The notes beneath the pieces are model-generated. The model did no database searches, was not told the origin of the DNA, and saw only the letters and a program-made list of their open reading frames with translations. Shown here piece after piece: positions 146-61,187 of a stretch of DNA of 64,000 bases. Position numbers and translations under genes: made by a program. Origin of the DNA: a virus; the IMG/VR virus record IMGVR_UViG_3300034069_001196, positions 1 through 64,000 of that record, one strand, 5' to 3'. Position 1 is the first letter of the stretch. Every line of letters begins with the position of its first letter.

Positions 146-1222
146 TCAGCGATTCACCGCGTAGACGGCCACCGGTATCGAGTAGCTGCCCGCTACGGAC
201 AGGAGCGGCACGTTCATCACCGCCTTGAAGGTGTTGGCTGCGGTCGGCAGCGCATGGTGGATGGCATATCCATTCGGGAAGGTGCTGGGACTGGTCGGAT
301 AGACCTCCAGCAGGTCCGTCGTCAGCACGCCGGTGCAGGTGACGCCCGCGACCGTGCGGACGCCGGCGGCGACGGTGATGAGGTTCGTCTCGCCGATCGT
401 GGCGTTGCAGATGAACTGACTGGCCTTCGGTCCGGCGGGGCCCGTCGCGCCGGTGGCGCCGGCTACCCCCTGCGGTCCGGCAACACCCTGAGCGCCAGCA
501 GGACCGCTAGGGCCAGCAGGGCCAGTTGCCCCAGCAGCACCTGTTGCTCCGGTAGGCCCAGCAGGACCAGCGGCGCCGGTAGCACCAGCGCTGCCAGTGT
601 CACCGCGTAGCCCAGCCGCGCCAGTGTCGCCCTTCGCTCCTGTCGCACCGGTCAATCCTTGGGGGCCTGCGCTTCCCTGAGCGCCTGTATCGCCTTTTGG
701 GCCTGCTGGTCCGCTCGGTCCTGCCGGACCTGCTGCTCCCGTTGCGCCTGTTGCGCCTGTCTGGCCCGTTGGTCCCGCCGGTCCTGCATCGCCCTTGGCT
801 CCTACAGCACCCGGAGCGCCTGCCGGGCCAGCGGCTCCGGTATCCCCCTTCGGACCAGTCGCTCCATTCGCGCCGGCTGATCCCGCAGGGCCCGCTGGAC
901 CGGCGATTCCTTGCGGTCCGGCGGGACCAGCAGGTCCAGCCACACCATCGTTGCCATTACGGCCAGGAGACCCAGCCGGGCCGACAGGTCCAGGGCCACC
1001 GTCTGCGCCGCGAGCGCCTGCTGGCCCAATTGCGCCAGCGGGTCCGGGGATTCCTTGCTGTCCGGCATTGCCCGGCTCTCCCTTGTCACCTTGCGGACCG
1101 GGCGGCCCCGCAGGACCGGCGGGCCCCTGCATGTTCTTGAGGCTGTAGCCAACCGGCCGTGCGTCAGCCGGGATCGGCGCAACAAGCGCGAGGCACAGCG
1201 CGAGATGGAGCACGCGACGCAT
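146..1222 (-). CDS. collagen-like triple-helix repeat protein with N-terminal signal-like peptide and 92-aa C-terminal globular domain
   Basis: 358-aa ORF. N-terminus is [21 protein letters not shown]. It is followed by 78 uninterrupted Gly-X-Y triplets and a non-repetitive C-terminus. Confidence 0.85.
425..1126 (-). repeat. coding Gly-X-Y (GGN-NNN-NNN) tandem repeat, 78 units
   Basis: Counted directly in the translation ([12 protein letters not shown]...GPAGPK). It creates long shadow ORFs in other frames. Confidence 0.9.
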
Positions 1223-1729: not shown

Positions 1730-2020
1730 TTAGCTCCGACGCGGGCGGCCGCGGCGGCGCGGAGTGACCGAGGCCTGCGCGTCGCTGTCATCGTCGGGCT
1801 GCTCGGTCTCGGACTCCTCAGCTTCCGATTCCTCCTCGCCCTCTTCTTCCTCGTCATCCTCCGGCTTCGGAGGCCCGACAATCTTGGCGATGCCGAGCGA
1901 CACGAGTTCCTGCGCGTGGGAACGCGTGGCCTCGTAGGGCTCGCTGGCGGCGTTCTTCGGCTCGGAGCCCTCGTGGTAGGTCGAGATCGGCTGGACGAGC
2001 ACCTTGTCGGCTTTGGCCAT
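1730..2020 (-). CDS. small protein with highly acidic C-terminal half
   Basis: ATG at 2020 gives MAKADKVLVQPISTYHEG... followed by EDDEEEEGEEESEAEESETEQPDDDSD. Sits immediately downstream of the capsid gene. Confidence 0.55.
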   Translation of the reverse strand: MAKADKVLVQPISTYHEGSEPKNAASEPYEATRSHAQELVSLGIAKIVGPPKPEDDEEEEGEEESEAEESETEQPDDDSDAQASVTPRRRGRPRRS

Positions 2021-2097
2021 GGCTGATGACTCCGGCGAAAGGGGACCCACGGCAGGTAGCCGCCGCAGGTCGTTCATGATGATCGTCACGGCTGCGA

Positions 2098-3435
2098 TCA
2101 GACGGTGACGAGGTTGCCCTTCACGAAGGCCTGCGGACGGTAGACCGCCAGGGCCAGCCGCTCCTCAGCGCGGATCGTGATCATGTTCTTCTCGAAGTCG
2201 TCGTTGTTCTCGGTGGAGATCAGCACCTCGATCGACATGCGGTCGAAGATCTGAGCGCCGAGACGGAAGGCGCCGACGAGGAAGTCGTTGGGCGTCATCG
2301 CCAGGGTGGTGGCCACCGGAAGACCCCAGAGCGTCGGGCCGATCTGACCCTGCGGCTGGCCGATAATGTATCTGCCTTGGGTGTCTTTGGTGAGCTCGAT
2401 ACGGGCCCAATCAGTATCGTTCAGCGCGATGCCGGAGGCCGGGTAGAGCGCCAGGGTCGCCTGGAGGATGGCGAGGCGGAGGCGGTCGATCGGGGTCTCG
2501 GTCGAGACCGTGAACGGCGCGGTGTAGGGGCTGGCCTGCGGCATCACACCGAAGATGTTGCCGCTGGCGCCGTTGCCGTAGAGAAGCTGCGCCTCTTCGG
2601 CGAACAGCAGGCCGTACCGGGCCCGGCCGTCGATGTAGGAGACGAGGCCGACCGCGTCGTCGAGAAGCTGGCGAGAGCCCTTGAACAGGTGCGCGATGGT
2701 CTTCACCGGCACGTTGCGCATGTCGAACGTCAGGCTCGACTCGGGCTTCTTGGCGCCCTCGGCGACGATCGCCGCGGCGTTGGTGAAGCCGGTCTCGACC
2801 GGGTACTCGATGGAATTCGAGTTGGTCTGGCCGGGCGTGAACAGGTCACGGATGCGGAGCTTGCGATCCGGCAGGTTCACGATGCCTTGGCGGTCGGAGG
2901 CGATGAGCGAGTTGCTCAGCGAGGTGGTCGAGCCGGTGACACCCGGCACGGTCAGCATCGCCTTGGTCTCGACCGAGGTCCGCACGTTGCCGCGAAACTG
3001 GCTGCCGAGCTCCTTCACGCCCCTGAAGCTCTCGCTGTCGACGAGGTGCTGGCCGAGGGTCTTCACCTCGACCGGATCGCCGCCGCCGCGACGGGCCGAC
3101 TTCTGCTCGACCTCGGCGATCCGAGCGTCGAATGCAGTGATCTGCTTTCCAAAATCGACGAGGGCGGTATCGACCGCCGACTTGGTCTCACCGGCCATCG
3201 TGCCGGTCGACTTCATCTCCTTCTCGACCTTCTCGGCCAGCCGGGAGACCTCCTCGAACTTGCCCTTGAGGGCGTCGGTCGCGGCCTTGAATTCAGCCTC
3301 GCCGACGCCGCCATTCTGGCCGGTCGCGGCGCCGCCGCCGGTATCCGGCGCGAGGGCGACGCGAATTCCACCGATCGAGCACGACGCGAGGAAGGCAGCC
3401 GGGATCGCCCCGGCGATGAAAATCACCTTGGACAC
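2098..3435 (-). CDS. major capsid protein, HK97 fold family, with lipoprotein-signal-like N-terminus
   Basis: Coiled delta-like N-region (AEFKAATDALKGKFEEVSRLAEKVEKEMK) plus typical capsid core (IEYPVETGFTNAAAIVAEGAKKPES, LLYGNGASGNIFG). A GTG at 3435 lies 6 nt after GGAGA. No other plausible start exists before the conserved region. Confidence 0.88.
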   Translation of the reverse strand: MSKVIFIAGAIPAAFLASCSIGGIRVALAPDTGGGAATGQNGGVGEAEFKAATDALKGKFEEVSRLAEKVEKEMKSTGTMAGETKSAVDTALVDFGKQITAFDARIAEVEQKSARRGGGDPVEVKTLGQHLVDSESFRGVKELGSQFRGNVRTSVETKAMLTVPGVTGSTTSLSNSLIASDRQGIVNLPDRKLRIRDLFTPGQTNSNSIEYPVETGFTNAAAIVAEGAKKPESSLTFDMRNVPVKTIAHLFKGSRQLLDDAVGLVSYIDGRARYGLLFAEEAQLLYGNGASGNIFGVMPQASPYTAPFTVSTETPIDRLRLAILQATLALYPASGIALNDTDWARIELTKDTQGRYIIGQPQGQIGPTLWGLPVATTLAMTPNDFLVGAFRLGAQIFDRMSIEVLISTENNDDFEKNMITIRAEERLALAVYRPQAFVKGNLVTV

Positions 3436-3463: not shown

Positions 3464-4822
3464 TCAGCCGAACAACGACATGAATTCGTTGAATGCGGCC
3501 TTGCTTTCGGAGGGGCTCGCCTGACCGCCCTCATCGTCACGATGAGCTAGCAGTGTCGGAAAGACCGTCGCGGCGAAACGAGCGGCCTGCGATCGTGTGA
3601 AGCCCGCGTCGCGCAGGGCATCTTCACACTCACGTCGGTTAGTCGGCGCCGATTTGGTGCCGCCCTCTAGGAGAGGTCCGCCCACAGCGTCCTGCAAATC
3701 CTGGAGGTGAGAGAGGAATTCCGCGCGGTCTGCCGCCGTCGGCGAAGCCTGACCGGTCATCGCGCGGGTGTGCAGCGCCATCAGCGCGGCGATGCCGGAG
3801 CGGGCCCGGTCACTATCGACGACGCTCAACTGCGCCTTTACCTGGAGCACGAGGCTTTGCGCATTCGACGGGGTGTCGACGACGCTGATCTCCTCCAGAG
3901 CGATGTCCTTGAGCACGCGGCGGGCGCCGGTGGCGATGGCGGCGGCCTTCGTGCCGAACTCGGCACCGTTGGGCCGGACGCGATAGCCGACCGAGAGGCC
4001 GGACAGGGCACCGTCGCGAATGCCGGAATAGATGTAGCGGCCGGTCTCCGTATCCATGCCGGCGACCCTGCCCTTGACGTGCAGGCCCTTGCTGTCCTCC
4101 TCGACCACCTGCCAAGAGCCGACACCGCGACGGCCGCCGAGTGCCGGGAGGCCGTGGTTGAGGTGCATCGCGATGCGCCGGCCGGACGTCTTCACCTCCG
4201 CAAGGCCGGGCGTGAACGCGCCTGGCACGATGACATCGCCATGCCAGTCGACGTTGCCGAACACGGCGCCGTAGCCCTCGAATTCACCTGAATCGGCGTT
4301 GCCGGCGGCCTTCGCCTCGAAAGGCGCGACGTAGATGTCCGTCATGATTCTTGATCCCAACCTCGGTCTGCTCGACTTTTCCTCGACGTTGCTCGCCCAA
4401 TCGGGGTCGATCTCAACGAAGATCTCAGGGCCGAACATCAGCGGGCCGGGGAACGGCTCGATCTGGTCGAGATCGACGTCGCCGGGCTCGTATGTGAACG
4501 TGACGTGCGGCTGATAGGTCGGGAAATCGAATGAGGCGCCAGCGTCTCTCAGGAACCGCCACCGGGCCTGCAATTCGTCACTCGCGAAGGTCAGCACAGT
4601 TGCCTTGCCGAACGCCTTGACCGCTCGGCCGCCGCTCAGAGCCATGAGACCCTTCTCATCCGGGCGAATGCCGCTCCAGTCGAAAGGCTCATTGCTGTAG
4701 GCGACCGTCACATGCAGATCGGCCGGCAGCATCACCGTCGCGAACCCCTGCCCTTTCGCCCACGCGATCAGGTCGTTCGCGTTGAGCAGCGGGCGATTCA
4801 CGTAGAGCGTGCGGGCGGCCAT
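3464..4822 (-). CDS. 2H-phosphoesterase-like domain fused to HK97-type prohead protease and a scaffold-like C-terminus
   Basis: aa 1-150 carry two HxTx motifs: LHVTVAY (H37) and PHVTFTY (H106). From about aa 160 on: MTDIYVAPFEAKAAGNADSGEFEGYGAVFGNVDWHGDVIVPGAF (prohead-protease-like). The position between portal and capsid fits. Confidence 0.85.
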   Translation of the reverse strand: MAARTLYVNRPLLNANDLIAWAKGQGFATVMLPADLHVTVAYSNEPFDWSGIRPDEKGLMALSGGRAVKAFGKATVLTFASDELQARWRFLRDAGASFDFPTYQPHVTFTYEPGDVDLDQIEPFPGPLMFGPEIFVEIDPDWASNVEEKSSRPRLGSRIMTDIYVAPFEAKAAGNADSGEFEGYGAVFGNVDWHGDVIVPGAFTPGLAEVKTSGRRIAMHLNHGLPALGGRRGVGSWQVVEEDSKGLHVKGRVAGMDTETGRYIYSGIRDGALSGLSVGYRVRPNGAEFGTKAAAIATGARRVLKDIALEEISVVDTPSNAQSLVLQVKAQLSVVDSDRARSGIAALMALHTRAMTGQASPTAADRAEFLSHLQDLQDAVGGPLLEGGTKSAPTNRRECEDALRDAGFTRSQAARFAATVFPTLLAHRDDEGGQASPSESKAAFNEFMSLFG

Positions 4823-4832
4823 CGGATGCGCC

Positions 4833-5093
4833 TTAGGCAGTGATGTGGCGGACGGCGCGCATGACGGCGTCTTCCATGTGCGTGTTGGCCAGCGCCAAGT
4901 CGCGGCCTGCGAAAACCGCGGCGCCGGGCTTGGTCCCGCCGATTTCGTGCAGCAGCGCGATGAAGGCGGCGCCAGCGTCTTTCACGCGGACCATCTGCTC
5001 CTTCTCGATGTCGCTGAGCGTGCGATAGGTGTGCCGCACGGCATTGTTCTGTGTCCGCTCGTCGGCGGCGCTATCGAGGCGCGTCGTGGTCAT
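4833..5093 (-). CDS. small helical phage protein, function unknown
   Basis: 86-aa ORF between portal and protease. The C-terminal pattern RDLALANTHMEDAVMRAVRHI resembles a common small phage protein family, not identified with certainty. Confidence 0.55.
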   Translation of the reverse strand: MTTTRLDSAADERTQNNAVRHTYRTLSDIEKEQMVRVKDAGAAFIALLHEIGGTKPGAAVFAGRDLALANTHMEDAVMRAVRHITA

Positions 5094-5102
5094 AATCGGT
5101 CC

Positions 5103-5306
5103 TCAGGGATGGAGGCCGACCGGCACGTAGACCGGTCCGACCAAGGTGTAGAAGGCGACGCCGGGCTTCCAGGTCTCCTCCTCGTCGACCCAGCGGGATC
5201 GAGCAGGCTCCCAGACGTAACCGGGCCGGATTCCCAGCATCACGGTGCTTTGGCCGGACGCAGGCGCGACGAGGCGGGCCGCACGGCGCAGCCATTCCCA
5301 GAACAT
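5103..5306 (-). CDS. hypothetical small protein
   Basis: 67-aa ORF. Third-codon positions are mostly G/C by eye. Tightly packed after the portal gene. Confidence 0.55.
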   Translation of the reverse strand: MFWEWLRRAARLVAPASGQSTVMLGIRPGYVWEPARSRWVDEEETWKPGVAFYTLVGPVYVPVGLHP

Positions 5307-5321
5307 GACGATGCTCCCGTG

Positions 5322-6653
5322 TTACGTGGCTGCGCCCGTGGCGGTCTGATCGCCCACGGCAGCGGCATCGCGCGAGACGCCCGGCTCGCCCTTCGGCAGG
5401 TTGCCAGCGGCGGCGATGGCCTTCTGGATCTCCTTGGCGACCTTCGCCTGCTGCACCAGCACGTCGAGCGGCATCATCGCGCCCTGGACGAGGAGGTTAT
5501 CGCCACCTGGCTTCGGCGGCAGGTTCTCCAGCGCCCGGATCTCGTTCGGCGTCATGAAGCCGCTTTGGCCCATGGTCCGGTAATACTCGGCGCGCCCCTT
5601 GCTGTCGGCGCGGAGCAGGCCCTCGACGTTGAACTCGGCGTAGAAGCGCGTCTGATCGCCCGGCGTCAGGCACTTCATGCTGAGTGCCTGCTCGATCTCC
5701 TTCAGGTGCGCTCGCAACGTGTACGTCAGGAAGCCGAGGTTGATCTGCTCCAGCCCGGTGCCCCAAGTGGTGCTCTTTTCGGTATGGCCGATGAGCGAAG
5801 GCGGCACGCCGAACCACCGGCAGATCGTCTCGACGTTGAAGCTGCGCGTCTCCAGAAACTGCGCGTCATCCGGCGCGATCGACAGGGGAGCGAACTCCCA
5901 CCCGCCCTCGAACATCGGGATCTTCCCGGCATTCTCGCCTCCGGTGAAGCCTTGGAGGTATTCGCGCGTCTGCTGGCGCTGCGGGGCCGACAGGAACTGC
6001 GGAATCTTCAGGTAGCCGGACGGCTTCATGCCGTTTTTGAACATGGTGCCGGCGACGCGCTCGGCGCTGAGGGCGGTGCCGAGGCTCTGGCGCCCGGCGG
6101 CGATGGCCGAGATGCCGCTATAGCCGTCGAGGCTGAAACCCTTCAGGTGGAGGATGTCCTCCTCCTGATAGACCGTGGTGAGGCCCTCGAACACATAGGT
6201 GTAGGTCCGGCTGCCATCCCGTTGGCGGTCGATCCGCACCCGGTCACTCGGCAGAGGGTCGAGCGAGATCACCGAATTGTCGGTGCGCCGCTTCGTGATG
6301 GCGGCATAGGCGTTGCCCCGTGCCAGCTTGTTGGCGACCATCGCCGTCCAGAAATCGACCGCCGTCATGTCGGCATTGGGCCGGTCATGGATCACGCGAT
6401 AGAGCGGGTGCTCCGTCGCCACGATGGCTTGGCCAGCGCCGGAACCGCGCTCGTAGAGCATGACGGGCAGCGTCGAGATGGTCTGCGCGACGAGGCGGAT
6501 GCAGGCGAACACGGCATCCAGTTGCAGAACCGTCTCGACCGACACCCGCTCGCCGGAATGCGTCTGGCCACCGGTCGCCCAATCGAGCAGAATCGGATTG
6601 GTGAGGCCCATCCCTGTCGCCAGGGTGCCGACCGACTTCTTGAACAAGCCCAT
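5322..6653 (-). CDS. phage portal protein (HK97 family-like)
   Basis: 443 aa, positioned after the large terminase. Typical portal blocks (FWTAMVANKLARGNAYA, FNVETICRWFGVPPSLIGH). Confidence 0.88.
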   Translation of the reverse strand: MGLFKKSVGTLATGMGLTNPILLDWATGGQTHSGERVSVETVLQLDAVFACIRLVAQTISTLPVMLYERGSGAGQAIVATEHPLYRVIHDRPNADMTAVDFWTAMVANKLARGNAYAAITKRRTDNSVISLDPLPSDRVRIDRQRDGSRTYTYVFEGLTTVYQEEDILHLKGFSLDGYSGISAIAAGRQSLGTALSAERVAGTMFKNGMKPSGYLKIPQFLSAPQRQQTREYLQGFTGGENAGKIPMFEGGWEFAPLSIAPDDAQFLETRSFNVETICRWFGVPPSLIGHTEKSTTWGTGLEQINLGFLTYTLRAHLKEIEQALSMKCLTPGDQTRFYAEFNVEGLLRADSKGRAEYYRTMGQSGFMTPNEIRALENLPPKPGGDNLLVQGAMMPLDVLVQQAKVAKEIQKAIAAAGNLPKGEPGVSRDAAAVGDQTATGAAT

Positions 6654-9593: not shown

Positions 9594-9664
9594 TGGCACC
9601 GGCCCAAGGAGTCGAACCCTGATCGCGGGCTTTGGAGACCCGCTTGCGCCCTGCGCTGGCCGAT
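9594..9664 (-). tRNA. tRNA-like gene, anticodon CCA (Trp), atypically short D-arm
   Basis: Hand fold of the minus strand. Acceptor ATCGGCC/GGCCGGT. Anticodon arm GCGGGT-CTCCAAA-GCCCGC. T-arm CAGGG-TTCGACT-CCTTG. Encoded GCCA end. Only 15 nt are available for the D-arm (GCGC-AGG-GCGC). Confidence 0.45.
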
Positions 9665-9667
9665 AAT

Positions 9668-9751
9668 TGGTGAGGGGAGCAGGGCTCGAACCCGCCTTGC
9701 CATAGGCGCCGGATTTACAGTCCGGTGGACGTCCGCCCGTCCATTCCCCTC
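9668..9751 (-). tRNA. tRNA-Tyr (GTA), class II with long variable arm
   Basis: Hand fold. Acceptor GAGGGGA/TCCCCTC. D stem GGAC/GTCC. Anticodon arm CCGGA-CTGTAAA-TCCGG. Long variable arm. T-arm GCGGG-TTCGAGC-CCTGC. Encoded ACCA. Confidence 0.8.
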
Positions 9752-9901
9752 GAAGCTCGCCCGGCTCCCCTCCCCTGAAAGAGGAGGGGTTCATCAGGCC
9801 CGCCGACTGCCTGGCGCCCGGCTTTGCACGACAGGGAGAAGCGGACGCTCCCCTACCCCTATCGCCAGCACGCCCGTCGGGCGCCCGCACGGCATCTCGA
9901 A

Positions 9902-10081
9902 TTAGATCCGGAACCCTTTCCCGCAATGCCGGCACTCCAATCGCTCGAAGTGCTGCGGAACGCGGTCCTTGGTATCCGTGTAGTCGTGGAAGTCGTCGTA
10001 ATCGCCTTTGCCGACGCTCGCCATGCAGACGGCGCGCTGGGAAAGCCGGAATGCAGCCAGGAACACGATCAGCAGGCGCAT
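9902..10081 (-). CDS. hypothetical small protein (59 aa; below the ORF-track cutoff)
   Basis: MRLLIVFLAAFRLSQRAVCMASVGKGDYDDFHDYTDTKDRVPQHFERLECRHCGKGFRI. About 83% G/C at third codon positions by hand count. Confidence 0.5.
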   Translation of the reverse strand: MRLLIVFLAAFRLSQRAVCMASVGKGDYDDFHDYTDTKDRVPQHFERLECRHCGKGFRI

Positions 10082-10106
10082 GGCGACGATCCGAACTTGG
10101 TTGCGA

Positions 10107-10328
10107 TCAAGCCGACTCAGCCGATTTCAGCATGGTCGGCGGCACCCACACACACTGCAGTGTGCCGTTGTGCATCCACGACACCTCAACCTGCGGAAAC
10201 TCTGTCCGCCAGCAAATCGCCGTGACCATGCCTACCGTCTGATCGTCGTCGCCAATCAGGACGCGGTCACCCAGCGCGAAAACGGACTCGTAAGTGGTCG
10301 AGCGCTGAGTTGCCGTGCCCTTCATCAT
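10107..10328 (-). CDS. hypothetical protein
   Basis: 73-aa ORF between tRNA genes. Protein-like composition. Confidence 0.55.
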   Translation of the reverse strand: MMKGTATQRSTTYESVFALGDRVLIGDDDQTVGMVTAICWRTEFPQVEVSWMHNGTLQCVWVPPTMLKSAESA

Positions 10329-10347
10329 GGTTCCTATGTCAGCAAAT

Positions 10348-10424
10348 TGGTTGCGGGGGTCGGATTCGAACCGACGACCTCTTGGTTATGAGCCAAGCGC
10401 GCTACCGGACTGCGCTACCCCACG
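10348..10424 (-). tRNA. tRNA-Met (CAT), initiator-like with divergent anticodon stem
   Basis: CGTGGGGTAGCGCAGTCCGGTAGCGCGCTTGGCTCATAACCAAGAGGTCGTCGGTTCGAATCCGACCCCCGCAACCA. Has a C1xA72 mismatch. The 3' half nearly matches my recollection of bacterial tRNA-fMet. The anticodon stem is CTTGG/CCAAG, so only 2 of the 3 canonical G:C pairs are present. Confidence 0.85.
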
Positions 10425-55726: not shown

Positions 55727-56290
55727 TCAGTACGTCGGCCAATTCTCAGTCGCCTGCACGAGGCGCGAGATCTCGCTGCAGCCGAAATCGCCCGGATACC
55801 GGCTCTGCTGAGTCGCGTCGGACAGGTAGGCCAGCGCGGGGCGGCGCCGGCGGTAGAGCAGCGTCACGGTGCTGACCGTGATGGTCGAGGCGCTGACGTC
55901 GGACGTGATCTTGGCTCGGTCCATGAGGCCATTCCAGATCGCGATCGGCTTATCGACGGGAGCGAGGTTCTCGTCGAAATACTGCTCGAAGATGATGCAG
56001 GGCTGGCCTTTGACCTCGTGCGAAGCGGCGAGCGCCCTGGCTGCGATCTCCGGATCGATTCCTGAGAGCGTGAGCGTCGGCGTCTGGCTCGATACCAAGG
56101 CCCGTTCCAGGTCGGACACCGTTCCGAGATTGCCGACGCCCTGCCACACCTGCCCGTTGGCATCCTTCAGCGGGCCCGGCCCGGTCCAGACGTACATCGT
56201 GCCGCTGGTGAATCCGAGTTGGACGAGCAGCGCCACGAACAGTTGCTGACGCTGCTGAATCGCACGGACGAGGTCAGGATAGCCGCTCAT
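55727..56290 (-). CDS. distal/minor tail protein
   Basis: 187-aa ORF. The start overlaps the tape-measure stop. Confidence 0.65.
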   Translation of the reverse strand: MSGYPDLVRAIQQRQQLFVALLVQLGFTSGTMYVWTGPGPLKDANGQVWQGVGNLGTVSDLERALVSSQTPTLTLSGIDPEIAARALAASHEVKGQPCIIFEQYFDENLAPVDKPIAIWNGLMDRAKITSDVSASTITVSTVTLLYRRRRPALAYLSDATQQSRYPGDFGCSEISRLVQATENWPTY

Positions 56291-59200
56291 CAGCCGAACG
56301 CCCGCTTGTCAGCCTTCTGCCGATCGAACTGCGTCCGGCGCTGCTCCTGATCGTAGGACGACAGCGTTGAGCGCACCCGAGCGTCGACTTCCGCCAGCGA
56401 CAGGTTCGATCCCCGCAGGTCGAAGCTAAATTGGCGCGCATCGACGGCCTGCTGCGGCCCGTTCGCATTGGCCGCGATCGGCGCGAGCGGCGCCTTCATG
56501 TCCGGCATCTCGACAAAGCCGCCGTCGGCATAGCCACGGAGACCGTCGAAGAAGCCCCGGCCGATCCGGCTGACCGTGCCGGAGTCGATCACGTACTCGC
56601 CGCGGTGGACGATGCCGGCCGGCTCGTACTTGCCCCCGTGACCGGTGTAGCCGCCGTCAGCAAAGCCGAACAGTTTGCCGATCCCGCCGAACAGGTCGAA
56701 GCCACCACCGCCACCGCCACCGGATGACCCGCCGCCTAGAATGCTGCCGAACAGCTTTGAGAAGATGGCATCGGTGCCGAACTGGATCAGCTTGTCGCCG
56801 ATCTTGTTCAGCGCGCTGGCGAACGCATTGGCGACCGACGTGCCGTGGCTGAGGTCGGTGATGATGCCGGAGAACGCGCCCTGGCTGGTGTCCTTGACCT
56901 GTTTCAGGGTGTCGAGCGCCTGCGACTGAGCGATGACGAACTGCGCGCTGGCCGAACTTGTGTCGCCCACCAGGGATCGAGCCTGCGAATAGGCCGCCCC
57001 CTCTGCTGCGGTCCGTCCGAGTTGGTCGCGCTGGAATCCGGTGTCGCTGGCGAACTGCTGCAGCTTGATCTGCTGAGCCGCGCTCGCCGTCTGCGTCGCC
57101 AGCCCCTTGATCGAGGCTGCCAGCGCATCGCTCGCCGGCACACCGGCATCGAGCAGGGCGTTGTAGCGCTTGGTCGCCTCAGCAGTCGCCTCCAAGGCGA
57201 GACCGTTCTGCCCGTAGTTCTGCGTGACGTTGCGCAGCGTGTCGTTCTGGTCCCTCAGGGCCCGCGTGTAGGCATCCTGATCGCGGCCCTGAGCGAGCGA
57301 CGAGGGATCGCCCATTTGCCCGGCGCGCCGCAGCACGTCGTTCGCATAGGCCGTGTTCGCAGCGTCGTCCTTGCTGCCGTAATAGTTCTTGAGCGCCTTG
57401 AACTGGTCGCCCCCGGCCTGATCCAGCTTCATCTGGAACACGCCCGCGATGCCGGCGGCCCCCTGCGCCGGATCGGTCCGGTCGAAGGTCGACGGCAGGT
57501 AACCGTTGCGGATCGCGTCCGCAGCCGTGCCTCTGGTGATCTGGCCAAGGCCATAGGCCGACGTGGACGGGCGACCGTCCGGACCAAGCACCTTCGTGCC
57601 GCCGATGTTCGCGTTGCCGCCCGACTCCTTATCCGCGATGCCGGCGATCAGCGCCGCAGGCACCTTCCCGAATTGCTGACCGGCCGCGATGATCTGAGCC
57701 TGCACGCTCTGCGACATGCGCGAGAAGGCGCCGCCGATCTGATTGCCCTCCAGGGTGCTGCTCTTTTCGAGGCTCTGGAGCAGCGTGACGCGCTCCTGCT
57801 CGATCGACTGCAACCGGGCATTGATATCGCTCTGGTTGCCGCCCTGGCGCCGAACGTCGATCTCCTTATTCGCGGCGTTCTCGTTGATCGTTGCGGCGCT
57901 GAGGCCCTGCTGCGTGAAGCCGATGGTGCGCTGCTGGAAGCCGGCGGTGCGGAGGGCATCGGCAAATCCGGACCCGCCGGCCATGAGATCCTCGCGAAGC
58001 TGCTTGGCCTGCGTCAGGAGTCCTTCCATGGCGCGCCGAGCGTTGCCCTGCTCGTCGAAGGGCAGCTTCGCGAAATTGGTAGCGATGTCCTTCGCCATGT
58101 CGCTGATCTTCTTGATCTGCTCATTGGCGGGGTCGAGGGCGCGGACGTAATCGCCGATGCGCGTGCTGGTCTGATTCTGCTGAGCCTGCTGAATGCGCTC
58201 GTCGCGCTTCCGGACGTCCTCCTTGAGCTTGTTGACCTCATCCTGCGCTAGGCGCTCGTCTCTGCTCGCTACACCCGGCAGGAGCGAACCGAATGCACCG
58301 GCGGACCGGGCCCGGCTGTTCTCCAGCACCTTCTGCGCGGTCGCGAGGCGCTCCTCCAGCGAACCGCCTGTGACCGCTTTGTCGACGGCGCCGCCGACCT
58401 TGTCCCAGACGTCGCTGATGGTGGCGCCGACCGCAGCCGTGGTCCGCCCCCACGCGCTGGTGAGCTCCGTCGCGCTGGTCAGACCGCTCTTATAGGTGTC
58501 GAGCAGGAGCTTCTGCGCACCGAGACGATCGCCCTGCGCGGCGAGGCGCTGGATGTTCTCGCGGGTGGTGTCGTTGAGGATGGCAAGCTGCTTGTCGAGG
58601 GTGTCGGCGCCCTTGGCCGGATCAGCGAACGCCTCCGCGAGGGCCTTCGTCGCGTCCGGCACGCTCTGCCCGGTCGTGGCCGCATAATCCTTCACCGACC
58701 CGATCAGGCCACCATACATCTCGGTGCCGATCTTGCCGGTGGCGGCGAACTCGCCCGCCATCTCCCGAGCCGACCGGACCGAAACACCACCGGCGGCGGC
58801 GCTGGCCGACGCAACGGCATTGATCTGCGCGACAGTTGCTCCCGAAGCGCGACCAACGCCCGAAAGGTTCTGTGCCAGAGCCGTCTGCGTCGAGGCATAG
58901 GACTGCTGCGCAGTCACGCCCGCCAGCACCGCCGCGGTCACGCCGGCAAAGGCACCCCCGACAGGGCCTATGCGCCGCGCAACGCTCATCGCGGTTTCGC
59001 CGATACCCGCCAGCGCACCGCGCACGCCGCCCTGGCCGCCCTGAAGCACCTGGAAGATCTGGCCGCCCTGCTGGGCGAACGTCTGCATCGGGGAGATGCC
59101 GGACGCCAAGGACGTCACGACATCATTGATCTGGAAGCTGAGATTCTGCCAGCCGTAGGCGGACAGGCCGACCCCCTTCGCCAGCCGGGCATTGGCGTCT

Positions 59201-60921
59201 TCAGCCTTCCGCAATTCGTTGGTCTGCGCGAGCAGCGTGTTCCGAGCACGGGCGACTGCCGCCTCGAACTCGCCTTGGTCGATGATCCCGGCTTCCAGGG
59301 CCTTGTTGGCAGATTCCTGCGCCGCCTCGAACTGCTGAGTGACAGCGAACATCGGCACGAGGGCGGCGCGCTGTTTCGTCAGGCTGGCCGCATACGCCTC
59401 AGCCTCCGCCCCGGCCTTCTGCGCGGCGGCATTGATCTGCGACTGCAACGCGGCATTGGCGCTGTCATCGCGCACCGTGCCGCTCATGTTACTCAGTGAG
59501 CCGAGCTTGTTCGATGCTTGGATGTTCTGGAACGCGGTCCGTCCCTGCTCTCCAAGCTGAGACCATGCCGCCCGCAGGTCCGAAGCCGAGCGCGCGGCGG
59601 CGCCTTGGATCTCAACCACGCCATTCAGCGCCTTGATCTGGTCCGCGAAAGCGTCCTTCTGCTGCGCGAGGTTGGTGTTGAACACCTCCTGGCTGATCGC
59701 GCCGGCGGCGAAGGCCTGCCGGAGATCCTGAAGCCCGGACAGGTACTGCTGCTGCGCCCGATACAGCGGGTCGTATTTCGCCCGCGTGTTGCTCAGCGCC
59801 TGGCCATAGGCGTCGATGTCAGCCGCTCGCGATTCGGTGCCGAAATCGTCACGCACTCCGAGCAGCTTGTTGAACTGCTCCTGAGCGGAGGCTGCAAGCG
59901 CGGTCGCCTGTGCGGCCTTCGTCTGCGCATCGACGACGCCATTGATCTTCGCCACAGCGGCATCGAGCAGTGCACCTTGCTCGGCGAACCGGGCATTGTA
60001 AACGCCCTGCGAGATCGCGCCGACCGAGAGGGCCTTGTCGAGTTCCTCGACGGTCCGGATGTAAGACTGCTCAGCGGCGAACAGCGGGTCGAACTTCGCC
60101 TGCAGCGCGTCGAGGCTCTTGGCGTAAGCCTCGATGTCTCCTCCCCGGTCCGGCACGACGAGTTGCGAATTGACCGATCGCTGGGCGGACTCCTTCTGGA
60201 CCTGCGCAATGCGCTCCAGCACCTGGATCTGGTCGTTGTACGACCGGGTCGCCTTCTGCCGCGCGTCGTTCGCAATCTCGGTGGTCAGGATGCCCGCGCG
60301 CTCGGCGTCGGTGACCTCCTTCACGGTCGCGGCATAGCGCTGGGCCGCCGCGAACATCTGGTCGTATTTCGCCCGCAGCTTATCGCCGGCAGCAGCCGCG
60401 GCCTCGAAAGCGGCCGCGCGGTCCTCGCCAGCGCCACCGCCGCCGCCCCCTCCTCCGACGCCAAGGCGCTGATTGATCGTCTTCTGGTAGGACGCGGCAG
60501 CGGCCTCCTGCGCCTCACGGGCCTGGATCGTGGCCTGAGCGGCGGCGCGCTGAGCAGCCTCGAACGCCTGCGCCTCCTTGGCTGCCGCACCGAATCGTGT
60601 CTGCAACAGGCCGATCTGCCGCTCATAGGTCGCGACGTCGGTGGCGCCCTGCTGGAGCGCTCGGTCAGCGTTCTCGAGTCCCCGCCGCAGGTTCTCAGCC
60701 GCGCGGAAGCTCTCATCGACCTTAAGCCGCCAGCGGTCGAACGCGCCCGCAGCCGATAGGGTCTTTTTCGATGCGAGGTCCGTGATGACCGCGGACGAAT
60801 TGACGACATCCCCCAGCTTCTGCTGGGCGTCGGCAGTCGCCTGGAGGTCGCGACGAACCGCGTCGCCACCCTCAGAGATCTGCTGCACCCGAATGCGGCG
60901 GATGGTTTCGATTGTCGGCAT
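56290..60921 (-). CDS. tail tape measure protein with internal lytic-transglycosylase (SLT)-like domain
   Basis: About 1540 aa, Ala/Gln-rich helical repeats. IADKESGGNANIGG...STSAYGLGQITRGTA. Poly-Gly runs. ATG at 60921 preferred over GTG at 60993. Confidence 0.88.
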   Translation of the reverse strand: MPTIETIRRIRVQQISEGGDAVRRDLQATADAQQKLGDVVNSSAVITDLASKKTLSAAGAFDRWRLKVDESFRAAENLRRGLENADRALQQGATDVATYERQIGLLQTRFGAAAKEAQAFEAAQRAAAQATIQAREAQEAAAASYQKTINQRLGVGGGGGGGGAGEDRAAAFEAAAAAGDKLRAKYDQMFAAAQRYAATVKEVTDAERAGILTTEIANDARQKATRSYNDQIQVLERIAQVQKESAQRSVNSQLVVPDRGGDIEAYAKSLDALQAKFDPLFAAEQSYIRTVEELDKALSVGAISQGVYNARFAEQGALLDAAVAKINGVVDAQTKAAQATALAASAQEQFNKLLGVRDDFGTESRAADIDAYGQALSNTRAKYDPLYRAQQQYLSGLQDLRQAFAAGAISQEVFNTNLAQQKDAFADQIKALNGVVEIQGAAARSASDLRAAWSQLGEQGRTAFQNIQASNKLGSLSNMSGTVRDDSANAALQSQINAAAQKAGAEAEAYAASLTKQRAALVPMFAVTQQFEAAQESANKALEAGIIDQGEFEAAVARARNTLLAQTNELRKAEDANARLAKGVGLSAYGWQNLSFQINDVVTSLASGISPMQTFAQQGGQIFQVLQGGQGGVRGALAGIGETAMSVARRIGPVGGAFAGVTAAVLAGVTAQQSYASTQTALAQNLSGVGRASGATVAQINAVASASAAAGGVSVRSAREMAGEFAATGKIGTEMYGGLIGSVKDYAATTGQSVPDATKALAEAFADPAKGADTLDKQLAILNDTTRENIQRLAAQGDRLGAQKLLLDTYKSGLTSATELTSAWGRTTAAVGATISDVWDKVGGAVDKAVTGGSLEERLATAQKVLENSRARSAGAFGSLLPGVASRDERLAQDEVNKLKEDVRKRDERIQQAQQNQTSTRIGDYVRALDPANEQIKKISDMAKDIATNFAKLPFDEQGNARRAMEGLLTQAKQLREDLMAGGSGFADALRTAGFQQRTIGFTQQGLSAATINENAANKEIDVRRQGGNQSDINARLQSIEQERVTLLQSLEKSSTLEGNQIGGAFSRMSQSVQAQIIAAGQQFGKVPAALIAGIADKESGGNANIGGTKVLGPDGRPSTSAYGLGQITRGTAADAIRNGYLPSTFDRTDPAQGAAGIAGVFQMKLDQAGGDQFKALKNYYGSKDDAANTAYANDVLRRAGQMGDPSSLAQGRDQDAYTRALRDQNDTLRNVTQNYGQNGLALEATAEATKRYNALLDAGVPASDALAASIKGLATQTASAAQQIKLQQFASDTGFQRDQLGRTAAEGAAYSQARSLVGDTSSASAQFVIAQSQALDTLKQVKDTSQGAFSGIITDLSHGTSVANAFASALNKIGDKLIQFGTDAIFSKLFGSILGGGSSGGGGGGGFDLFGGIGKLFGFADGGYTGHGGKYEPAGIVHRGEYVIDSGTVSRIGRGFFDGLRGYADGGFVEMPDMKAPLAPIAANANGPQQAVDARQFSFDLRGSNLSLAEVDARVRSTLSSYDQEQRRTQFDRQKADKRAFG

Positions 60922-60965
60922 GGATGATCCGTGCGAGTCGGGTCTAAGCCGTGAGGAGCAAGTGC

Positions 60966-61187
60966 ATGGGTTGGACCCTGATCTGGCTGACACTGAGCGG
61001 GACCGGGGCGCCGACCAGCGGCTCCGCTCATTTTGCTACGGTCGAGGCGTGCTTCGCGGCTCAGCGGGCCTACGGCGGGCTGAACTTCGACATCACGAAG
61101 GGCCGTCTTCTCACCCTCAGCAGCGAGTCGATCTGCGTGAACGATCAGACCGGCGAGGGTAGGACGGCTATCCAGCCTCGACCGTAG
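60966..61187 (+). CDS. antisense small ORF (73 aa) in the chaperone/tape-measure gap
   Basis: ATG at 60966, 7 nt after GAGGAG. Hand-counted GC3 is about 81%. MGWTLIWLTLSGTGAPTSGSAHFATVEACFAAQRAYGGLNFDITKG... Fits the 246-nt gap almost exactly. Confidence 0.5.
   Translation: MGWTLIWLTLSGTGAPTSGSAHFATVEACFAAQRAYGGLNFDITKGRLLTLSSESICVNDQTGEGRTAIQPRP

Follow-up and report, generated by a model that had tools for sequence, protein, structure and literature searches.

An Acb1-family domain joined in frame to a viral prohead protease, beside an Acb2-like gene

Acb1 is a monomeric 2H phosphodiesterase known from T4 (gp57B) and from Erwinia phage FBB1 (7T26/7T27; PMC9117128), and T4 needs both acb1 and acb2 against CBASS. 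Prohead proteases activate CD-NTases, CBASS signalling starts late, as proheads form, and the scaffold domain of the Bas13 protease triggers type I CBASS. Work done before Acb1, Acb2 and the CBASS triggers had been identified bears on how such enzymes might be deployed. Passages of Iyer, Burroughs, Anand, de Souza and Aravind (2017; PMC5512222) report fusions of 2H domains to MuF and portal proteins and note that polyvalent proteins have their assemblin-like (prohead) peptidases invariably at the C-terminus. They predict that such proteins are delivered together with the DNA and may degrade defence nucleotides.

Here we analyse a window of 64,000 nucleotides of viral DNA (positions 1 to 64,000 of IMG/VR record IMGVR_UViG_3300034069_001196) in which an Acb1-family domain is part of the maturation protease gene. 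The Acb1 proteins of T4 and FBB1 are free-standing, about 150 aa long and encoded outside the head module, whereas here a domain with the same 2H fold, as predicted, the same HxT/HxT tetrad and the same PF23474 profile match makes up the N-terminal third of a prohead protease. An earlier note on this DNA, made from the sequence alone, knew of no described system of this architecture. That was overstated, given the 2H-MuF and 2H-portal fusions in those passages of Iyer et al. 2017 (PMC5512222).

The fusion gene and its domains

The fusion gene lies at 3464..4822 on the minus strand, between the portal and major capsid genes in the list of open reading frames. From an ATG start it encodes 452 aa and a stop, comprising an Acb1 domain, a linker, an HK97-type prohead protease and a helical C-terminal region, and the Acb1 and protease parts share one frame without an intervening stop. 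The closest unfused relatives of the protease are 292-299 aa long, so the fusion has about 155 extra residues, and the earlier note was right that the gene is longer than usual HK97-type prohead proteases and that no stop separates its parts. A public collection holds an identical protein (P0001) and eight more fused clusters. These nine independent 90%-identity clusters come from different metagenomes and are 60-100% identical, and the open reading frame is uninterrupted in all of them. It is hardly credible, then, that a sequencing or assembly error, or an overlooked stop or frameshift, made a single reading frame out of separate acb1 and protease genes. Met160, with a Shine-Dalgarno-like element ahead of it, does look like an ordinary gene start, and beyond this the artefact is a general possibility alone; but the frame stays open across a variable linker in the nine clusters, which derive from independent JGI and Logan assemblies, and in three IMG/VR contigs. 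An artefact is effectively refuted already.

Residues 1-150 (4373..4822, minus strand) form an Acb1-family 2H phosphodiesterase domain. They match PF23474 (Acb1) over profile positions 1-143 of 144 (E 1.3e-35, 122.7 bits against a cut-off of 27), and phmmer against the PDB returned residues 469-618 of the Pam3 portal (1e-19) and Acb1 7t26 (1e-9). The AF2 model of the domain (pLDDT 91, pTM 0.85) has Acb1 7t26/7t27 as its top Foldseek matches (E 1e-8, TM 0.65-0.71). Identity to tested Acb1 is only about 25-30%, and the PHROG label of the domain is 'RNA ligase'. The earlier note had called this region a 2H phosphoesterase and proposed a profile search, a structure prediction with a fold search and a look at the conservation of two histidines; all of these bear it out and narrow the assignment to the Acb1 family.

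Both H-x-T motifs named in that note, 69 residues apart, were confirmed on the DNA. The first, H37-V38-T39 within LHVTVAY (4706..4714, minus strand; H37 codon CAT at 4714-4712), is aligned to LHTT, the first HxT in the chain of solved FBB1 Acb1, and the second, H106-V107-T108 within PHVTFTY (4499..4507, minus strand; H106 codon CAC at 4507-4505), to PHIT, the second HxT there. On this alignment we equate H37/T39 with H44/T46, and H106/T108 with H113/T115, of the Hobbs 2022 tetrad, where the two histidines are likewise 69 residues apart. Across 150 representatives the His and Thr of the first motif are invariant, while in the second the His is invariant or nearly so and the Thr nearly invariant. 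The domain ends in a conserved W..V-E-E-K tail, the pattern W-x3-[VI]-x-E-[KEQ] being found family-wide at the equivalent position, which matches that of the flexible C-terminal lid with which Acb1 covers its bound ligand (Hobbs et al. 2022; PMC9117128). The tail is probably a substrate lid. As Acb1 is monomeric, the domain should tolerate fusion. Going by these resemblances, we are fairly confident that the N-terminal domain degrades CBASS cyclic oligonucleotides.

The HK97-family prohead serine protease domain follows at aa 160-331 (3830..4345, minus strand). It matches PF04586 (Peptidase_S78; E 1.5e-21, 77.7 bits against a cut-off of 21), the TIGR01543 equivalog (81.7 bits against a cut-off of 59) and phrog_80, head maturation protease. 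This agrees with the protease-like block that the earlier note placed from about residue 160 on, where GYGAVFGNVDWHGDVIVPGAF is aa 183-203. His194 (4241-4243) and Ser277 (3992-3994), both on the minus strand, are each invariant in 16 sequences, and from this we infer that they are the catalytic dyad; presumably they are equivalent to the catalytic residues of HK97 gp4. A PDB sequence search for a solved homologue of the protease part gave matches at chance level only.

The remaining residues, 332-452 (3467..3829, minus strand), are predicted to be helical (337-355, 363-380, 396-405, 410-420 and 437-451). A profile search with this region gave no match, and it is conserved in the unfused relatives (P0010-P0018), so that the fused and unfused proteins have it in common. 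The layout resembles the protease-plus-scaffold arrangement of Bas13, which suits the scaffold-like character ascribed to the last 120 or so residues in the earlier note. Judged by its analogues, HK97 gp4 and the scaffold domain of Bas13, the region presumably targets the capsid or acts in a scaffold-like manner. The HK97 gp4 protease is reportedly encapsidated, and serves as the model for this role.

The upstream cassette and the junction

Directly upstream of the fusion lies a gene for an 86-aa Acb2-like cyclic-oligonucleotide sponge (4833..5093, minus strand), the first gene of the inserted cassette described below, whose stop is 10 nt from the fusion start. The protein matches PF24729 (Acb2_Tad1_hairpin) over aa 22-85 (E 2.6e-17, 63.2 bits against a cut-off of 27) and aligns weakly with PaMx33 Acb2 (p26, 8h2j/8ixz; E 0.13). 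The earlier note did not mention this neighbour. Further upstream come a small conserved open reading frame of 67 aa (5103..5306, minus strand), which stands between portal and cassette and marks the upstream edge of the insertion, and the portal gene (5322..6653, minus strand; PF04860, E 1e-103). On the other side is the major capsid gene (2098..3435, minus strand; PF05065, E 7e-56), whose likely start, a GTG at 3435, was placed by alignment with relatives. Its product has an N-terminal delta (scaffold) domain and is the protease substrate. The protease is thus encoded between portal and delta-domain major capsid genes, as in the HK97 family.

In unfused relatives the gene order is portal, small open reading frame, protease, capsid. 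Homologues of the small frame (60-66 aa) precede the cassette in fused loci and stand directly before the protease in unfused ones. An acb2 gene is directly upstream of the fusion in all eight loci whose upstream region is intact and about 78 unfused relatives lack it; in these loci acb2 and acb1 are always found together, 10-11 nt apart in every case. Fused and unfused states are intermixed on the protease tree with an identical in-frame junction throughout, and no split acb1 gene was seen in this protease clade. Comparison of these gene orders shows acb2 and acb1 as a cassette that, by all appearances, was inserted just ahead of the protease start. Among the closest IMG/VR relatives the fusion to Peptidase_S78 is rare (3 of 80). 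A genome scan found one related prophage only, in Methylobacterium sp. Leaf118, and this is unfused; the host is therefore assigned by similarity only.

The linker (aa 145-159; 4346..4390, minus strand) is predicted to be disordered, with a pLDDT of about 25 over aa 136-161. The full-length AF2 model from which this comes is moderate (pLDDT 62), and we therefore drew on it for nothing beyond linker disorder and helix content. The last linker codons consist of the former protease 5'-UTR and its Shine-Dalgarno element (TTGGGATCAAGAATC, then ATG), and the GGATC[A/G]AG element before Met160 has the same spacing as in the 5'-UTR of the unfused Methylobacterium Leaf118 prophage. Read in this light, the junction is shown to have arisen by an acb1 without a stop reading through the old protease 5'-UTR.

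The Met160 codon (4343..4345, minus strand) is the ancestral protease start, invariant in 16 of 16 sequences and aligned with Met1 of all unfused relatives. It is the internal ATG at 4345 from which the earlier note thought the protease alone might be made, and such a product is plausible on these grounds. In six of six fusion genes the Shine-Dalgarno-like duplex before Met160 has an energy of -4.0 to -6.3 kcal/mol, like those of real starts, and 10-26% of positions in these G-rich genes equal that signal, which is not unusual for background. The element is compatible with internal initiation, not proof of it, and we put the chances that Met160 is used as a start at about even.

A further feature of the linker, its 'NVEEK/SSR' sequence, resembles the ends of capsid delta domains, 'EVEQK/SAR' and 'VETK/A', and the idea that the maturation protease cuts here and so frees Acb1 within the prohead was considered and dropped. 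In a control on 106 family members, stand-alone Acb1-family proteins end at the same W-x3-[VI]-x-E-[KEQ] tail; the likeness reflects a family-wide Acb1 feature and is thus not specific evidence for release of the domain.

Function and delivery of the Acb1 domain

Acb1 domains are recurrently fused to head-interior proteins. Among the 150 closest representatives the domain sits mostly on portals, Mu-F proteins, prohead proteases and polyvalent effector proteins, and just 7 are 200 aa or shorter. The Pfam partners in this set are portals (17+12+5), the XkdF protease (17), Peptidase_S78 (3), DUF2213 (8) and Mu-F (16), with ARTs, LPDs, Zeta toxin and NUDIX as other partner domains; the 25 partner families listed per batch as the most frequent include no terminase, major-capsid or tail family. 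The domain is always N-terminal to the protease and C-terminal on portals, and these simple fusions all fall at one gene junction, that of portal and protease, with about 70 clusters of portal::Acb1 against 9 of the protease fusion. We had also taken cultured phages with a 'prohead protease' matching the N-terminal domain as candidate true fusions, and these proved to be stand-alone, mis-annotated Acb1 genes of 150-199 aa. The fusions have thereby led to free-standing Acb1 genes being labelled 'prohead protease' in GenBank phage records.

The account that we favour, and hold to be somewhat more probable than all others together, is a mobile acb2 and acb1 anti-CBASS cassette in the head operon of a Methylobacterium-type siphophage, giving an Acb1::linker::protease polypeptide. 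The Acb1 domain would open cyclic di- and trinucleotide alarm signals into linear molecules, its HxT/HxT catalysis needing no metal, and a separately encoded Acb2-like hexamer would mop up what signal remains, a nuclease-plus-sponge pair as in T4. Both would be made from the late head operon, timed with the CBASS triggers (prohead protease, scaffold region and capsid), and each long-form protease molecule would bring its own antidote. With its cargo on the protease N-terminus and a C-terminal part that enters procapsids, the long form would probably be co-assembled into proheads, and the enzyme would then already be present in virions, in the manner proposed for polyvalent proteins. The retained Met160, with its Shine-Dalgarno element, would probably act as a second start that gives plain protease, setting the ratio of the two forms.

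Capsid loading and injection can reasonably be inferred from the repeated occurrence of the domain on portals, Mu-F, proteases and giant polyvalent proteins. By these analogies, we see the Acb1 domain being encapsidated as about as likely as not, and an injection that matters for function as rather unlikely. As CBASS fires late, it is not evident that the enzyme would have to be injected. The Acb2 sponge encoded next to it is unfused and presumably cytoplasmic, which counts against packaging, and loss of a stop at the favoured portal/protease insertion site could create simple fusions whether or not packaging is selected for.

A serious rival to packaging is an enzyme that works in the cytoplasm only, late in infection, and we give it a smaller though considerable share of the probability. 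The fusion would be a by-product of the cassette's landing site, the enzyme would act from the late pool of unassembled polyprotein, and whatever Acb1 entered the capsid would be irrelevant or digested along with the protease. CBASS signalling at the late stage of prohead formation suits such a role, as do T4 Acb1 and Acb2, which work as free cytoplasmic proteins, and the virion protein Gp15, whose unincorporated cytoplasmic pool has been proposed to block CBASS; the adjoining sponge is unfused, simple fusions all fall at the portal/protease junction, and the junction here resembles read-through of an old 5'-UTR. Yet the domain is also found in giant polyvalent proteins, 1,300-3,300 aa long, that have Mu-F, ART and LPD domains as well, and stop loss between neighbours cannot explain these. 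Its partners are nearly all capsid-interior, the 25 most frequent families listed per batch being free of terminase, major-capsid and tail families, and the in-frame junction has been retained although the cassette was repeatedly gained, lost or exchanged, with no split acb1 in the clade.

Two other readings concern what the domain does rather than where. As a 2H enzyme it might instead act on 2',3'-cyclic-phosphate RNA ends left by anticodon-nuclease attack, as an RNase, on 2'-5' oligoadenylates or on CRISPR cyclic oligoadenylates, which we consider improbable. LigT, CPDases, Usb1 and viral 2',5'-phosphodiesterases belong to the superfamily, with folds that come lower in the Foldseek list, the PHROG label points the same way, passages of Iyer et al. 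2017 (PMC5512222) consider an RNase role, and this subfamily is only about 25-30% identical to tested Acb1. The best sequence and fold matches are nevertheless to Acb1 and not to LigT, the Acb1-type lid tail is conserved, and the immediate, always co-inherited neighbour is an Acb2-type sponge; an RNA ligase partner is absent, a point that passages of the same paper (PMC5512222) make for these 2H domains. Still more improbable, to the point of being barely worth entertaining, is a domain that serves mainly as a pro-domain or mask, keeping the protease inactive or hidden from protease-sensing CD-NTases until it is in the prohead, with nuclease activity secondary. CBASS responds to prohead protease activity and to the scaffold region, and the domain is tethered immediately ahead of the protease; but a mere mask would not need the strictly conserved catalytic tetrad, a predicted disordered linker of about 25 residues sets the domains apart, the same domain occurs on portals and Mu-F, where masking is unneeded, and the retained Met160 start would give unmasked protease anyway.

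Returning to the favoured Acb1::protease account, it could extend to the whole subfamily, as a rule capsid cargo that would enter the next cell with the DNA, the protease fusion also coupling the antidote to the CBASS trigger; we regard this wider idea as doubtful. If it is true, virion-delivered signal-degrading enzymes would be a widespread counter-defence strategy that the anti-CBASS field has left unexamined. Studies of Acb1 have so far dealt with a T4 enzyme that is free in the cytoplasm, and the closest relatives of the domain here are mostly capsid-interior modules. Since prohead proteases and scaffold regions are CBASS triggers, the fusion with its co-inherited Acb2 sponge makes a compact test system. 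Do virions carry pre-made counter-defence enzymes, and are the timing and stoichiometry of trigger and antidote important?

Comparison with known systems

Phage T4 moves its internal proteins and Alt into the prohead interior by attachment to the core or scaffold, and this cargo leaves with the DNA; a short N-terminal targeting peptide is removed by gp21. In the nested head genes C and Nu3 of lambda, an in-frame internal start yields two products with a common capsid-targeting C-terminus. Acb1::protease can be likened to both, with its predicted cargo and its candidate internal start.

Closer in content are the portal::Acb1 proteins of cyanophage Pam3 (gp3, 8HDS), Pseudomonas phiPSA1, Rhizobium RHEph04-06 and P. 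aeruginosa prophages, which have the same Acb1 subfamily (45-55% identical). As in the fusion here, the domain is covalently attached to a capsid-interior head protein and encoded at the portal/protease junction. There, however, it is on the portal C-terminus, so that each virion would have 12 copies, all held at the vertex, whereas here it is on the protease; and the P. aeruginosa example, unlike our locus, has no adjacent acb2. NCBI names the P. aeruginosa prophage proteins 'anti-CBASS protein Acb1 family protein'. The paper on the Pam3 virion structure does not report the Acb1 domain of the portal, and the anti-CBASS literature that we searched does not mention such capsid-protein fusions of Acb1; a literature search on the BCSR5 phage phosphodiesterase (PDB 9q2y/9q2g) gave no result.

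The XkdF-type (Peptidase_S78_2) fusions have the same order, Acb1 N-terminal and protease C-terminal, but a different protease family, and account for about 17-20 of the 150 closest representatives, against 2-3 for the S78 fusion. The polyvalent proteins in passages of PMC5512222 likewise combine an effector domain with a head module and are encoded among virion genes. A two-domain 2H::HK97-protease that uses the phage's own essential maturation protease is not explicitly described in those passages. The domain family, and the idea of attaching Acb1-type domains to capsid-interior proteins, are thus already known, and the protease partner is a reported CBASS trigger.

[quoted passage not shown]

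The window is a siphovirus-type phage genome of ~65% GC, with a tape-measure gene (56290-60993), tail genes, DnaB, RecT and three tRNA genes (Trp-CCA, Tyr-GTA and Met-CAT; 9594-10424, minus strand) directly upstream of the small-terminase/packaging region. The ORF listing and the DNA itself confirmed what an earlier note had read from the sequence: a fused ORF of 452 aa with an ATG start (3464..4822, minus strand) lies between the portal gene (5322..6653) and the major capsid gene. It carries the motifs LHVTVAY at His37 (codon CAT, 4714-4712) and, 69 residues later, PHVTFTY at His106 (codon CAC, 4507-4505); the protease block GYGAVFGNVDWHGDVIVPGAF falls at aa 183-203, and the internal ATG at 4345 is Met160.

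The same note took the N-terminal domain for a 2H phosphoesterase, and profile searching placed it in the Acb1 family: aa 4-144 match Pfam 'Anti-CBASS protein Acb1' (PF23474) over profile positions 1-143 of 144 (E 1.3e-35; 122.7 bits, cut-off 27). The active site of Acb1 is an HxT/HxT tetrad of H44, T46, H113 and T115 (Hobbs et al. 2022, PMC9117128), with the same His-to-His spacing of 69, and a PDB sequence search aligned both HxT motifs of the fusion with those of the solved Erwinia phage FBB1 Acb1. AlphaFold2, given a 51-sequence alignment, modelled aa 1-150 with confidence (pLDDT 91, pTM 0.85); among PDB folds this model comes closest to Acb1 (7T26/7T27; E 1e-8, TM 0.65-0.71), then to a 2025 Burkholderia-phage phosphodiesterase, and after that to LigT and other 2H enzymes. 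Taking aa 1-150 as query, phmmer picked out 2,059 proteins from 1.84 billion representatives, and among the best 150 of these the first His/Thr pair, that of His37, is invariant and the second, that of His106, invariant or nearly so. The assignment to Acb1 is strongly supported, and the domain probably acts on a CBASS-type cyclic oligonucleotide.

Further along the protein, aa 171-330 match Peptidase_S78 (Pfam, E 1.5e-21) with invariant His194 and Ser277, and the NCBIfam equivalog for the HK97 prohead protease (TIGR01543) scores above its cut-off. A full-length model predicts aa 136-161 to be disordered and aa 337-451 helical. The latter agrees with the note's description of the last ~120 aa as scaffold-like, in a layout that parallels the protease-plus-scaffold arrangement of the Bas13 prohead protease. 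This helical part is also found in unfused relatives, those whose protease has no Acb1 domain. The linker resembles the capsid maturation site, a likeness that was considered as a sign of cleavage and then dropped because it lies in a C-terminal tail found across the Acb1 family. This tail is probably the substrate lid that the C-terminal residues of Acb1 form (Hobbs et al. 2022, PMC9117128); with the likeness so traced, no release site for the Acb1 domain was supported in the linker.

Two genes downstream of the capsid gene might encode proteins of the head decoration or fibre kind: one product, of 358 aa, contains long stretches of collagen-like G-x-y repeats (146-1222, minus strand; PF01391, E 6e-37), and the other, of 119 aa, has a tail that is rich in E/D and highly acidic (1730-2089, minus strand). 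The capsid protein N-terminus (3289-3435, minus strand) has a hydrophobic segment of ~25 aa and then a Gly-rich stretch, PDTGxGAAxGQNGG, before the coiled-coil delta domain, both common to capsid proteins of the clade. Within the hydrophobic segment lies a lipobox-like L-A-S-C, the Cys of which is not kept in relatives.

Origin of the fusion and its acb2-like neighbor

Directly upstream of the fusion is a gene absent from the earlier note (4833..5093, minus strand), whose stop is 10 nt before the fusion start codon. Its 86-aa product is the size of Acb2, and Pfam recognizes in it the hairpin domain of Acb2/Tad1 (PF24729, E 2.6e-17). Because this match stands beside the Acb1 domain, the locus appears to hold both known kinds of cyclic-oligonucleotide countermeasure, sponge and nuclease; T4 is protected by Acb1 and Acb2 acting together (2026 protease-trigger preprint). 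The ORF immediately following the portal gene (5103-5306, minus strand) encodes 67 aa ending ...GPVY.x.G..., for which neither Pfam nor NCBIfam gave a family; kept in fused and unfused relatives, it marks the upstream boundary of the cassette insertion.

In the nearest proteases that lack the N-domain, which measure 292-299 aa and are 60-76% identical (the named ones come from Methylobacterium and Methylorubrum), the start Met aligns exactly with the invariant Met160. Unfused loci are ordered portal, 60-66 aa ORF, protease, capsid, and fused loci portal, small ORF, acb2, acb1::protease, capsid. The linker end in the fusion gene, …TTGGGATCAAGAATC-ATG, contains a Shine-Dalgarno-containing element, GGATC[A/G]AG, found at almost the same spacing in the 5'-UTR of the unfused gene of the Methylobacterium sp. 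Leaf118 prophage (…CAAGGATCGAGCCG-ATG). We therefore infer that acb1 reads through a former 5'-UTR into the protease. That the internal ATG could yield the protease alone, as had been suggested, is plausible: all 6 of 6 genes keep the SD-like element before Met160, which agrees with the ancestral UTR, but its predicted strength is unexceptional for these G-rich genes.

Within the clade acb2 and acb1 strictly co-occur, and neither was detectable near ~78 unfused relatives. The N-domain proved rare when relatives were surveyed (3 of the 80 best in IMG/VR), and the related prophage found in one species-representative genome is unfused. Fused and unfused states are interspersed in a tree of the protease part, with 0 of 100 bootstrap replicates splitting them; two fused proteins, P0002 and P0009, are 85% and 82% identical to the unfused Leaf118 and Methylorubrum proteins, respectively. 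It follows that gain, loss or exchange of the cassette has happened several times, and the in-frame junction is the same in every case. There is good support for the N-domain as an Acb1-type nuclease whose active site is intact and which is co-inherited with an Acb2-type sponge and expressed from the head operon.

Acb1 domains on other head proteins and the question of delivery

Among the best 150 of the 2,059 representatives, only 7 have a length of 200 aa or less, and 104 exceed 400 aa. Partner domains in this set are Phage_portal_3 (17), Phage_portal (12), Portal_Mu (5), XkdF-type protease (Peptidase_S78_2; 17), Peptidase_S78 (3), DUF2213 (8) and Phage_Mu_F (16), along with typical polyvalent-protein domains (ADP-ribosyltransferases, Zeta toxin, NUDIX, LPD1/5, PBECR3 and topoisomerase IB). 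Acb1 is N-terminal in every protease fusion found and C-terminal on portals. The best PDB sequence match of the N-domain lies in portal gp3 of cyanophage Pam3, at aa 469-618 (8HDS chain A, E 1e-19), the C-terminal ~150 residues of that portal being an Acb1-family domain; portal fusions also occur in cultured phages phiPSA1, RHEph04-06 and several Synechococcus phages.

In a P. aeruginosa prophage (L092:4001-6918), a 598-aa portal::Acb1 fusion is followed directly by a DUF2213/Pa193_gp24-family gene, the Acb1 domain again sitting at the portal|scaffold-protease junction, with no acb2 nearby. GenBank gives the name 'prohead protease (HK97 family)' to Roseobacter phage DSS3P8 gp129 (L010:3989-4441) and an Edwardsiella phage ZHS_4 gene (L009:2116-2715), of only 150 and 199 aa, in which the Acb1 match spans nearly all and most of the protein, respectively. 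Acb1::protease fusions are the probable source of this name, and the real proteases of both phages must be encoded elsewhere.

The head operon is a fitting place for such a domain. CBASS is triggered late, by virion-assembly proteins: prohead proteases cleave and activate CD-NTases, and an HK97-like protease scaffold domain (Bas13) can trigger a type I CBASS system. The antidote would thus be made with, and on, the trigger. Duda and colleagues reportedly found in 2013 that the HK97 protease is directed into the capsid by its C-terminal part, so cargo on the protease N-terminus should travel into the prohead.

As a whole this delivery model is plausible, with encapsidation of the Acb1 domain about an even bet and its functionally important injection rather doubtful. 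The main argument against packaging is that simple fusions could be created by stop-codon loss at one junction; all simple Acb1 fusions do sit at a single gene junction, portal|protease, and Gp15 sets a precedent, since CBASS is proposed to be blocked there by the share of a virion protein that stays in the cytoplasm. Adjacency of genes cannot, however, account for the Acb1 domain inside giant polyvalent proteins, and packaging is supported by this and by the partners, nearly all capsid-interior proteins among the best 150 of 2,059.

Relation to described fusions

Within the searchable texts of the anti-CBASS literature we found no discussion of Acb1 fusions: 'fused', 'portal' and 'prohead' are absent from Hobbs et al. 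2022 (PMC9117128), and 'fusion' and 'fused' from the 2026 protease-trigger preprint. The earlier note knew of no described system of this architecture, but a claim that it is unprecedented is not supported. Iyer et al. 2017 (PMC5512222) already describe fusions of 2H domains to MuF and to portal proteins, report assemblin-like (prohead) peptidases as C-termini of polyvalent proteins, propose that polyvalent proteins are packaged and injected, and suggest degradation of defence nucleotides as possible for their 2H domains; NCBI calls the portal fusions 'anti-CBASS protein Acb1 family protein'. Given these descriptions and this naming, Acb1-on-head-protein fusions are a known class, and the present one belongs to it as a capsid-interior protein that bears a 2H domain of the Acb1 family. 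Its points of interest are that the domain is inherited with acb2 as one mobile cassette, and that the partner is the CBASS-triggering protease.
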